Shown: positions 7,307-25,266, counted from the stretch's first letter. The stretch is 64,000 nt of DNA from Gaiellaceae bacterium (GCA_035650615.1 DASRHI010000052.1:72550-136549), one strand, 5' to 3'. Numbers and translations: made by a program. The notes: generated from the sequence alone by a model not told the origin.

Positions 7307-7421
7307 CCCTTCGCCGCGAGGCTAACCACCTCGCGCCGCCCCGCGCAAGTCGGCGCCGCGCGCCATGCGCAGGCAGCCGAGCGTCGACCCCGGAGCGTTG
7401 CGCGCCCGCCGGGGCCGGCGG

Positions 7422-23481: not shown

Positions 23482-24393
23482 GTGACGGCGCCCGTCCGGA
23501 TCGGCACCTGCTCGTTCGCCGACGAGGCGCTCGTGAAGCACTGGTACCCGAAGGGGGTGCCGGCGCGGGAGCGCCTCCCGTGGTACGCGGAGCGGTTCTC
23601 GACCGTGGAGGTCGACTCGACCTACTACCGGCTGCCGGAGCGCTCGGCGGTGCAGGGCTGGGCCGACCGTACTCCCGCCGGGTTCGTCGTGCACGTGAAG
23701 GCGTTCGGCCTGATGACGCGCCACCCGGTGCGGCTGGAGCAGCTCCCGCCCGACCTGCGCGAGGGGATGCCGGTCGACGAGCGCGGCCGGGTCGACCGGC
23801 CGCCGCGCGAGCTCCGGGGCGAGGTCTTCCGCGTCTTCCTCGACGCGCTCGAGCCGCTGCGCGAGGCCGGGAAGCTCGGCGGGATCCTCTTCCAGCTCCC
23901 GCCGTACGTCGTCTGGAAGCTCTCCTCGCTCGACTACCTCGAGTGGGCCCGCGAGCGCCTCGGCGGCGACGCGATGCTCGTCGAGCCGCGCCACCGCTCG
24001 TGGTTCGCCGGGGACGTGCGCGCGGACCTGCTGCGCTGGCTCGAGGAGCGCGGCATGTCCTGGGTCGTGGTCGACGCGCCGAAGGTCGACGCGCGGAACG
24101 TGCCGGAGACGCTCGTCGCCGCGACGACGCCGCTCGCGTACGTGCGCTTCCACGGGCGCAACGCCGCGACGTGGAACGCGCGCGGCGGCTCGGCCGCCGA
24201 GCGCTTCGACTACCTCTACGGCGAGGAGGAGCTGCGGGAGTGGGTGCCGCCGCTGCGCGAGCTCGCCGGGGAGGCCGAGGAGGCGTACGCCTTCTTCAAC
24301 AACAACAACCAGACGAACGGGGTCGCGCAGGCGCCCGCGGGCGCGCTGCTCCTCCGCCGTCTGCTGGAGGAGGAGGGCGTCCCCGTCGCCTGA
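23482..24393 (+). CDS. DUF72 family protein (YecE-like)
   Basis: [11 protein letters not shown]...[23 protein letters not shown], and [14 protein letters not shown] match the DUF72 pattern. Confidence 0.85.
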
Positions 24394-24394
24394 C

Positions 24395-24570
24395 GCGCAA
24401 CACCGTGAGGCCGGCGCTCGGCTCCTCGCGCGGCGCAACAGTCCGGGCTCCTCGCGCGGCGCAACAGTCCGGGGTCAGACCCCGGTTCGTTGCGCACGCG
24501 CCCGCGGACCCCGGTTCTGCAACAGTCCGGGGTCTGACCCCGGTTCGTTGCGCGCGCGCCCGCGCACCCG
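24395..24570. repeat. cluster of REP-like palindromic/direct repeats in the DUF72-GATase spacer
   Basis: There is a 26-nt tandem repeat, ctcctcgcgcggcgcaacagtccggg, at about 24422-24447 and 24448-24473. A 46-nt unit, gcaacagtccggggtc(a/t)gaccccggttcgttgcgc(a/g)cgcgcccgcg, occurs at about 24461-24506 and 24519-24564 with 2 mismatches. Each 46-nt unit folds as GCAAC..CCGGGGTC/GACCCCGG..GTTGC. Confidence 0.8.
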
Positions 24571-24588
24571 GCGCTAGCCTGGCCGGGT

Positions 24589-25266
24589 ATGCGGATCCTG
24601 GCGCTCACGCACGGCCCGCGGGTGCGCGCCGAGCTCTTCGGCGAGGTCGCCCGCGGCCAGGGCCACGAGCTCGTCGAGTGGGAGCTCCCGGCGCAGGGGC
24701 CGCCACCGGACGGCTTCGACGCGGTGATGGTCTTCGGCGGGCGGATGAACGTCGGCGAGGAGGCCCGCCACCCCTGGCTCGAGGTCGAGTACGAGCTCCT
24801 GCGGTCGTGGGTCGGGGCCGGGACGCCCCTGCTCGGCGTCTGCCTCGGCGGCCAGACGCTCGCCCACGCGCTCGGCGGCCGCGTCGGACCCGCACCCGAC
24901 TGGAAGGCGGGCTTCTACGACGTGGAGCTCACCGCCGCAGGGCGGGACGACCCGGTCCTCGGCGCCCTGCCCGAGCGCTTCGAGGCGCTCCTCGCGAACC
25001 GGTACGAGTTCGACCCGCCGCCCGGCGCCGCCCGCCTGGCGCGCGCGGGCCCGCAGGAGCAGGCGTTCCGGGTCGGCGAGCGCGCCTGGGGCGTCCAGTT
25101 CCACCCCGAGGCGCGCCGCGACCAGGTGCTCTCGTGGTGGGCCGACGGGCGCGAGCTCCCGGCCCCCCTCGGCGAGCTCGCCGGCCTGCTCGACGCGAAG
25201 CTGCCGCCGTGGCAGGAGCTCGGCCGGCGCCTCTGCCTCGCCTTCCTCGCGGCGGCGCGTTCCTAG
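24589..25266 (+). CDS. class I (type 1) glutamine amidotransferase-like protein
   Basis: LLGVCLGGQ (nucleophile elbow Cys) and WGVQFHPE (His/Glu); 225 aa. Confidence 0.8.
   Translation: MRILALTHGPRVRAELFGEVARGQGHELVEWELPAQGPPPDGFDAVMVFGGRMNVGEEARHPWLEVEYELLRSWVGAGTPLLGVCLGGQTLAHALGGRVGPAPDWKAGFYDVELTAAGRDDPVLGALPERFEALLANRYEFDPPPGAARLARAGPQEQAFRVGERAWGVQFHPEARRDQVLSWWADGRELPAPLGELAGLLDAKLPPWQELGRRLCLAFLAAARS

Follow-up and report, generated by a model that had tools for sequence, protein, structure and literature searches.

A hairpin repeat array in a Gaiellales actinomycete and its relation to the terminal repeats of TIRtrons

Why should the 195-nt spacer between a DUF72 family gene and a class-I glutamine amidotransferase-like (GATase) gene of a Gaiellales actinomycete consist almost entirely of palindromic repeats? 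The locus lies in a 64,000-nt stretch of DNA, the window, which corresponds to contig C52:72550-136549 of the source genome assembly G000 (2.86 Mb in 58 contigs, 74% GC, 83.7% complete). The spacer array, composed of two full units, two arm fragments and a co-duplicated spacer, is very probably part of a genome-wide family of 37-nt hairpins that represents the amplified terminal repeat of a TIRtron. TIRtrons or TIRYTs are genes resembling those of REP-associated tyrosine transposases (RAYTs; REP, repetitive extragenic palindrome) that are situated between inverted repeats sharing the motif GGGGWSAS (Di Nocera 2013, BMC Genomics 14:522, PMC3733652). The family is dispersed over the genome with a bias toward gene 3′ ends, is linked to a TIRYT gene, carries the GGGGWSAS signature and has been inserted at the DUF72/GATase junction.

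The spacer array and its family

The locus comprises the following features, in window coordinates; repeat features are given without a strand.

23482..24393, + strand: DUF72 family gene, upstream (Pfam PF01904, E 5e-58; open reading frame with G+C at third codon positions, GC3, of 0.99)
24394..24588: 195-nt spacer, nearly all repeat-derived and inserted relative to congeners
24395..24402: orphan 5′ basal-arm head GCGCAACA, read from the sequence
24420..24471: exact 2 x 26-nt tandem duplication of GGCTCCTCGCGCGGCGCAACAGTCCG (repeat family D2, 100% identity)
24459..24495: full unit 1, GCGCAAC-AGTCC-GGGGTC-A-GACCCC-GGTTC-GTTGCGC (pattern match and hairpin folding)
24496..24506: co-duplicated spacer copy 1, ACGCGCCCGCG, inside the 51-nt direct repeat D1
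24507..24517: orphan 3′-arm fragment GACCCCGGTTC (repeat family D4, three exact copies 29 nt apart)
24519..24553: full unit 2, GCAAC-AGTCC-GGGGTC-T-GACCCC-GGTTC-GTTGCGC (pattern match, direct-repeat analysis and folding)
24554..24564: co-duplicated spacer copy 2, GCGCGCCCGCG (direct-repeat analysis)
24589..25266, + strand: GATase gene, downstream (Pfam PF00117, E 2e-15; orthologues align from residue 1)

The spacer is built almost wholly from one motif, in agreement with an earlier note on this DNA that had described the spacer as almost wholly repetitive. The 26-nt direct duplication reported there is exact, with copies at 24420-24445 and 24446-24471 that lie 2 nt out of register with the positions first given, and the duplicated part corresponds to the left flank and 5′ basal arm of unit 1. 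The 46-nt unit that had been seen twice with a 58-nt period and 2 mismatches is likewise present and extends to a 51-nt direct repeat (D1; 24461-24511 and 24519-24569) with 3 mismatches and 94% identity. The extra GACCCCGGTTC noticed between the units begins exactly at a loop/arm boundary, and the fourth head placed at about 24395 is present as GCGCAACA. Of the long hairpin proposed for each unit, the stems fold as drawn (basal stem GCGCAAC/GTTGCGC, apical stem CCGGGGTC/GACCCCGG), but the middle is a 3+3-nt internal loop. Folding energies are -16.8 kcal/mol for unit 1 and -12.5 kcal/mol for unit 2 as DNA (z-scores -5.6 and -3.9) and -26.3 and -20.7 kcal/mol as RNA, with the two strands essentially equal, and a search of the region against Rfam gave merely sub-threshold miRNA-like noise caused by the hairpins. 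The 33-nt core pattern matches twice in the window and never in 100 shuffles. The loop base of unit 1 is an A at 24477, which creates GGGGTCAG on the + strand, and that of unit 2 is a T at 24535, which creates it on the - strand; as the five-nucleotide (N5) segments of unit 2 are those of unit 1, unit 2 is a direct duplicate in which the loop base has flipped.

The unit is not unique to this spacer; uniqueness was the outcome that the earlier note had named as speaking against a dispersed family. Genome-wide, the core GGGGTC-N-GACCCC has 61 exact copies, with T in the loop of 38, A in 23 and never G or C, and nearly every core stands in the context of the 37-nt consensus GCGCAAC-N5-GGGGTC-W-GACCCC-N5-GTTGCGC; the reversed, non-complemented core, used as a control, has no match in G000. 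Fuzzy matching recovers 57 full units, and 10 further units form an asymmetric subfamily, GCAAC-N4-cGAGCGTC-GACCCC-N5-GTTGC, for a family total of about 70 copies. The subfamily accounts for the second family locus of the window:

7367..7403: asymmetric-subfamily unit, GCGCAGG-cagc-CGAGCGTC-GACCCC-ggagc-GTTGCGC (pattern search)

The proposal of a dispersed family similar to REPs and bacterial interspersed mosaic elements (BIMEs) or to miniature inverted-repeat transposable elements (MITEs) is upheld in its main part by the 61 cores at 45 loci, but not as regards the classical GTAG-tagged REP/BIME type. A purely local slippage duplication, unique to the spacer and without a family, would account for the exact local tandem duplications that the array does hold, but it is already refuted, with practically no probability left to it, by the spread of the 45 loci over at least 30 contigs and by the occurrence of the same unit on both sides of the TIRYT gene.

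Gene context was taken from a GC3-periodicity gene caller run on G000 (2524 genes, 86% coverage), according to which 44 of the 45 loci are intergenic. Expected numbers were computed for the tandem, convergent and divergent classes.

Between tandem genes: 25 loci observed, 30.1 expected
Between convergent genes: 14 loci observed, 5.8 expected
Between divergent genes: 3 loci observed, 6.1 expected
Contig edge: 2 loci observed
Inside a called gene: 1 locus observed

The distribution over the first three classes departs from expectation (chi-square P = 0.001), with an enrichment of convergent spacers, and loci between tandem genes lie at a median of 22 nt from the stop codon upstream and 86 nt from the start codon downstream. 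Read in the direction of the upstream gene, the loop bases divide without bias into 28 A and 23 T. In a logo of 49 non-redundant units both stems are nearly invariant and the N5 positions of the two arms share a loose profile, R-M-Y-C-C; no conserved GTAG, CGTC or other unpaired tag was found outside GCGCAAC...GTTGCGC, and pairing or covariation of the N5 segments, as expected of a continuous stem, does not rise above shuffle expectation. The N5 segments are the same within an array and different between loci.

Two further sites of G000 bear on the variety and extent of the family. At C28:3511-3700, three variant units, GCAAC-gatcGAGGGTC-A/T-GACCCC-ggttt-GTTGC, recur with a period of about 95 nt and carry the 5′ apical arm GAGGGTC; in form they fall between the symmetric and the asymmetric subfamily. 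Contigs C11 (1-148) and C24 (25004-25302) both end inside identical repeat arrays, probably because the assembler failed to bridge a single array whose two sides they represent.

A Y1 gene bracketed by two units

The REP-associated transposase that the earlier note had envisaged elsewhere in the genome is found on another contig as the sole Y1 gene of G000, flanked by two units. A search with PF01797 (Y1_Tnp) gives a single match in the 83.7% complete assembly (C39:112331-113110, outside the window; E 2e-11), which encodes a protein of 259 aa. The two bracketing units have opposite loop polarity, one about 70 nt upstream of the gene with loop A and one downstream with loop T, and the TGA stop codon of the gene is the loop of the downstream unit (GGGGTC-TGA-CCCC). 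Bertels 2017 recognizes RAYTs by the high genome-wide abundance of the top 16-mer flanking the gene, and by this measure the gene qualifies, since the core 16-mer flanking it, CCGGGGTCTGACCCCG, is with 35 copies the commonest 16-mer of G000 (all-spacer median 3).

Residue conservation in the enzyme was judged in an alignment of 48 sequences, in which the H, H, Y and N of the HUH motif (here NHYHLL) and the tyrosine motif (here RYVVRN) are invariant and all present in G000. A C-terminal helix-turn-helix (HTH) at residues 221-258 scores 28.5 bits with HTH_38 and 28.0 bits with HTH_23, both above the cut-offs, and the best NCBIfam model is NF047646 (REP_Tyr_transpos; E 1e-17). An AlphaFold model built with 48 homologues has a predicted local distance difference test score (pLDDT) of 92.4. 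Its top match in a fold search of the PDB is 4ER8, the E. coli RAYT TnpA-REP, or YafM, with a bound REP hairpin (143 aligned columns, template modelling score 0.61 on the target), followed by ISDra2 and IS608 TnpA; a PDB sequence search with the enzyme found no Y1 structure.

The closest homologues of the enzyme, at 48-56% identity, come from metagenome-assembled genomes (MAGs) of Gaiellaceae and other Actinomycetota and from metagenome contigs. Their flanking repeats all have the basal stem GCAAC/GTTGC, on which an asymmetric core is placed that reads GGGGTCAG on the upstream side and, inverted, the complementary CTGACCCC on the downstream side. This pair is found at G000, L005, L029, L030 and L034; L028 and L032 have CTGACCCC downstream and near-consensus heads upstream, L033 has GGGGTCAG upstream and a near-consensus tail, and in L028, L029 and L030 the stop codon is the TGA of CTGACCCC. 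More distant homologues, from a Burkholderiales MAG, a deltaproteobacterial MAG and another actinomycete, are flanked by GGGGTCAGGTCTTGCA ... TGCAAGACCTGACCCC or near-consensus variants. As the homologous TIRtron repeats are asymmetric and carry GGGGTCAG on one arm, symmetry is a derived rather than a conserved feature of G000, whose unit is a symmetrized version in which both apical arms are GGGGTC and the loop base alone keeps polarity (A giving GGGGTCAG on that strand). The A-upstream and T-downstream polarity around the G000 gene is the inverted polarity of the terminal inverted repeats (TIRs) of the homologues.

The occurrence of GGGGTCAG in the G000 repeat fits the published GGGGWSAS signature, and because of this motif and the HTH-tailed enzyme, both enzyme and repeat are of the TIRYT/TIRtron type, TnpA-Y1 subclass 2.1, and not of the classical GTAG REP/BIME type. 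HTH-tailed TIRYTs with GGGG[AT][CG]A[CG] repeats constitute subclass 2.1, in which the survey did not find REP-like structures alongside the genes (Quentin 2018, BMC Genomics 19:475, PMC6006769). Like members of this subclass, the G000 enzyme is a long Y1 protein with a C-terminal HTH_23-type domain and a low copy number per genome; it differs in that both flanking repeats are strong hairpins of a family of about 70 copies and in its departure from the class-2 Y---NP and Ser motif. TIRtron repeats sometimes overlap the 3′ end of the gene and are sometimes amplified into dimers or clusters (PMC3733652). G000 shares with these systems the single RAYT-like Y1 gene, the flanking inverted repeats with GGGGWSAS that overlap its 3′ end, and a moderately abundant amplified family of singletons, dimers and clusters, and self-complementary repeats occur in some published TIR families too. 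It differs from them in its perfect apical palindrome on a GCAAC/GTTGC stem with a variable internal loop, in arrays that are direct tandem duplicates, and in its Gaiellales actinomycete host, Actinobacteria being absent from the main text of that study.

It is very improbable that the repeats are instead a classical REP/BIME family with GTAG tags and a subclass-2.2 RAYT, as in E. coli and Pseudomonas. The palindrome length of about 35 nt, the clustering, the extragenic location after gene 3′ ends and the single bracketed Y1 gene with the commonest 16-mer at its flanks all fit such a system, and 4ER8 is the closest solved fold. The logo, however, contains neither a GTAG/CGTC guide or tag nor any conserved unpaired flank, the motif is GGGGWSAS, the 259-aa enzyme carries an additional HTH domain and scores below the REP_Tyr_transpos cut-off, and the units are direct repeats rather than alternating BIME or inverted REPIN doublets and number tens, not hundreds, of copies. 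The REPIN/RAYT systems of Pseudomonas have reportedly been treated by Nunvar in 2010, Bertels and Rainey in 2011 and Bertels in 2017. An IS200/IS605 insertion sequence was also considered and rejected: these elements and their palindrome-associated derivatives share the Y1/HUH core, hairpin-containing ends and the expected single-stranded DNA chemistry, but the G000 gene is single-copy, reaches 16 bits (E 0.009) with the IS200 model NF033573 against a cut-off of 55, and has ends that are inverted repeats, with hairpins amplified without the gene.

The history of the Y1 locus can be followed in L028, a metagenome contig that is collinear with G000 over 12 kb, with flanks of 83-85% nucleotide identity and flanking proteins of about 84-90% identity. 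L028 carries a TIRYT at the same site with 70% nucleotide and 55-58% protein identity; the roughly 2-kb block in which it lies is far more divergent between the two than the flanks, and its repeat is of the asymmetric GGGGTCAAATCTGAATC type. As both enzyme and repeat differ between similar flanks, the two have diverged together, much faster than their surroundings. The composition of the Y1 gene (69% GC and GC3 of 0.87, versus 74% and about 0.97 for the genome) had suggested a recent import, which is not supported, given the L028 orthologue at the same collinear site.

The junction in relatives and the growth of arrays

The repeat pattern was compared with 24 congeners and 16 other genomes of the order, and the full G000 pattern, with 54 matches in G000, has none in these 40 relatives. 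The DUF72 stop codon abuts or overlaps the GATase start codon in 11 of 13 congeners (gTGATGc), so the 195-nt spacer of G000 is an insertion, at a junction that ancestrally was probably translationally coupled. The two nearest congeners (L015 and L016) have unrelated reverse-strand genes in the gap and no REP arrays. In the closest of them (G010, L015:752-790), right after the DUF72 stop codon, there is a degenerate GGGGTCAGGTCTTGCA-like sequence, aaccGGGGTCAGGTCTTGCattcc, that matches the TIRtron terminus consensus of other phyla and perhaps represents a decayed solo end at the junction where G000 has the array.

Parts of the system extend beyond G000. TIRYT paralogues with at most 49% identity are present in 33 of the 40 relatives, and the apical module CGGGG(T/A)C-W-G(A/T)CCCCG is patchy across the order, with 0-38 copies per genome on other basal stems (the one around the G028 homologue, for instance, is GAATAGA...TTTATTC). 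High counts of the GCAAC-N-GGGGTCAG head occur only in G000 (55), G030 (60), G036 (14) and G032 (13). In G030, which belongs to another family of the same order, GCAACGCCGGGGTCAG heads form inverted pairs about 177 nt apart at 8 or more sites (e.g., C2:562503/562680 and C5:97464/97642); their arrangement resembles that of a MITE or REPIN and suggests a doublet element from the same superfamily. When 185,579 species genomes were scanned, the identical unit architecture turned up on 13 or more contigs of a single Elusimicrobiota MAG, in two more Elusimicrobiota MAGs and one Planctomycetota MAG, and as single copies elsewhere. The Elusimicrobiota and Planctomycetota copies (GCAAC-N5-GGGGTC-W-GACCCC-N5-GTTGC) vary in their N5 segments and have A or T in the loop, and the design is thus not unique to the G000 lineage; no TIRYT gene lies within the 8-kb loci around L037-L052 (Elusimicrobiota MAG GFS_2774) and L039/L045 (Planctomycetota MAG).

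Within G000, arrays have expanded by local direct tandem duplication: adjacent units are direct duplicates, spacer included, and arm fragments mostly start or stop at a loop/arm boundary. Such arrays could be built by slipped-strand events or by unequal recombination between units. Of the 17 adjacent pairs, 11 agree at all 352 non-loop positions, and 3 of these 11 have different loop bases. Taking the 17 pairs together, 6 (35%) have unlike loops, compared with 2.9% at other positions, and always by an exchange of A and T. The loop base is therefore hypermutable between A and T and changes far faster than other positions, and it is uncoupled from the N5 segments. Inversion of hairpin loops is established. 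Template switching across the perfect apical palindrome would invert the one-base loop and is, by inference, the simplest mechanism for the exchange.

A repeat of another kind lies outside the window at C56:22451-24143, where 24 exact copies of a 36-nt sequence, GCTTCAACGGAGCCGGGGTTATTCAACCCCGGAGAC, with a period of 70-76 nt almost certainly constitute a CRISPR array.

Proposed mobility, possible roles and significance

In the proposed mechanism, the TIRYT or an ancestor of it would recognize the folded single-stranded hairpin and would have seeded units just downstream of stop codons. The TIRYT would be the enzyme that mobilizes the units. Once transcribed, the hairpins between the DUF72 and GATase genes could uncouple the two genes and could stabilize or insulate the DUF72 message, probably as a barrier to 3′-exonucleases or as a partial terminator.

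Several observations weigh against this reading. The arrays are direct tandem duplicates and not inverted doublets, so their local structure needs no transposase. A scan of 24200-24800 for U-tract terminators gave no terminator-like site, the hairpins being without T runs, and an intrinsic (Rho-independent) terminator was rejected, as the GC-rich hairpin is present but the U-tract is not; a scan of the spacer for sigma-70-like promoters found none. The enzyme misses the equivalog cut-off of NF047646 (64.5 versus 80 bits). It reads YVVRNR in place of Y---NP, with R in 3 and Pro in 45 of the 48 aligned sequences, and does not show the class-2 signature; it reads WRWAG in place of Ser-Ser, positions that are Ser in 45 and 43 of the 48, with a change of the first Ser to Ala that is unique among them. 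Loss of the near-invariant Pro and Ser-Ser means that the enzyme may be weakened or inactive. The deviations are variation within the TIRYT family and not grounds for exclusion from it, and they stand as a caveat on activity. Finally, N5 segments that are nearly randomized between loci, combined with invariant stems, are less readily explained by recent copying from a master than by old copies kept under selection; the pattern suggests either such selection or strong structural constraint.

A different account, possible though not probable, has the unit as an immobile structural element maintained by the host for a role in transcript ends, mRNA stability or DNA structure, with the TIRYT as a relic, domesticated or in decay, and with new copies arising by local duplication only. 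Invariant stems with N5 randomized between loci, the position of units about 20 nt past stop codons with enrichment between convergent genes, hairpins that are equally strong on both strands (-26 kcal/mol as RNA), the lack of polarity bias toward the upstream gene, the missing Pro and Ser-Ser and the exclusively direct arrays are all consistent with it. Yet 24 congeners with the same junctions lack the family, which means that it spread to at least 45 loci within the lineage and needed a means of dispersal. The catalytic HUH, Tyr and Asn are intact in an open reading frame, the hairpins have no U-tract, and repeat and enzyme change together between G000 and collinear L028, all of which count against an immobile element.

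The units could also be double-stranded, two-fold symmetric operators for a dimeric protein, with arrays serving as binding platforms; the TIRYT, through its HTH tail, and a nucleoid protein are candidates. The symmetry of the unit, with half-sites of one profile (GCGCAAC-R-M-Y-C-C-GGGGTC), N5 pairing no higher than shuffle expectation, conserved blocks about one helical turn apart and the HTH of the enzyme would suit such a role. Operators are nevertheless an unlikely explanation, since the homologous TIRtron elements are asymmetric, with GGGGTCAG on one arm and flanking copies inverted, and enzymes with this Y1 fold recognize hairpins in single-stranded DNA (the top fold matches include 4ER8 and IS608). 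The GGGGWSAS-type motif is also without resemblance to DnaA boxes (Quentin 2018, PMC6006769).

A bolder extension of the TIRtron reading, speculative and rather doubtful as a whole, holds that an asymmetric TIRYT end (GGGGTCAG...) was symmetrized to a perfect hairpin in which the loop base is the sole mark of left-end or right-end polarity and toggles between A and T far above background mutation. The toggle could be driven by template switching during replication or by the enzyme itself; if so, any tandem duplicate could become a doublet of opposite polarity, resembling a left and a right end, which would be a self-renewing source of mobilizable non-autonomous elements. For the second-largest Y1 subclass, in which such structures had been reported absent, the family would also be a simple hairpin substrate that is easy to handle.

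The kind of repeat described here is already known, having been described in 2013 and 2018, and the G000 family is a further case of it. For the genome, an odd repeat-filled spacer becomes an annotated feature, and a genome-specific repeat family is recognized, which marks 45 gene ends, causes contig breaks and has separated two genes that were once translationally coupled. Subclass 2.1 is the second-largest Y1 subclass, and the binding, cleavage and mobilization of its repeats were without experimental test in PMC3733652 and PMC6006769. G000 provides a clean Gaiellales case in which a subclass-2.1 terminal repeat is a bona fide amplified hairpin, an association undetected in the 2018 survey. 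Noteworthy are the symmetrized hairpin in a subclass reported to be without such structures, the stop codon within the repeat loop and the loop that flips between A and T; the last two, together with the fast divergence of enzyme and repeat relative to their collinear surroundings, offer handles for experiment.

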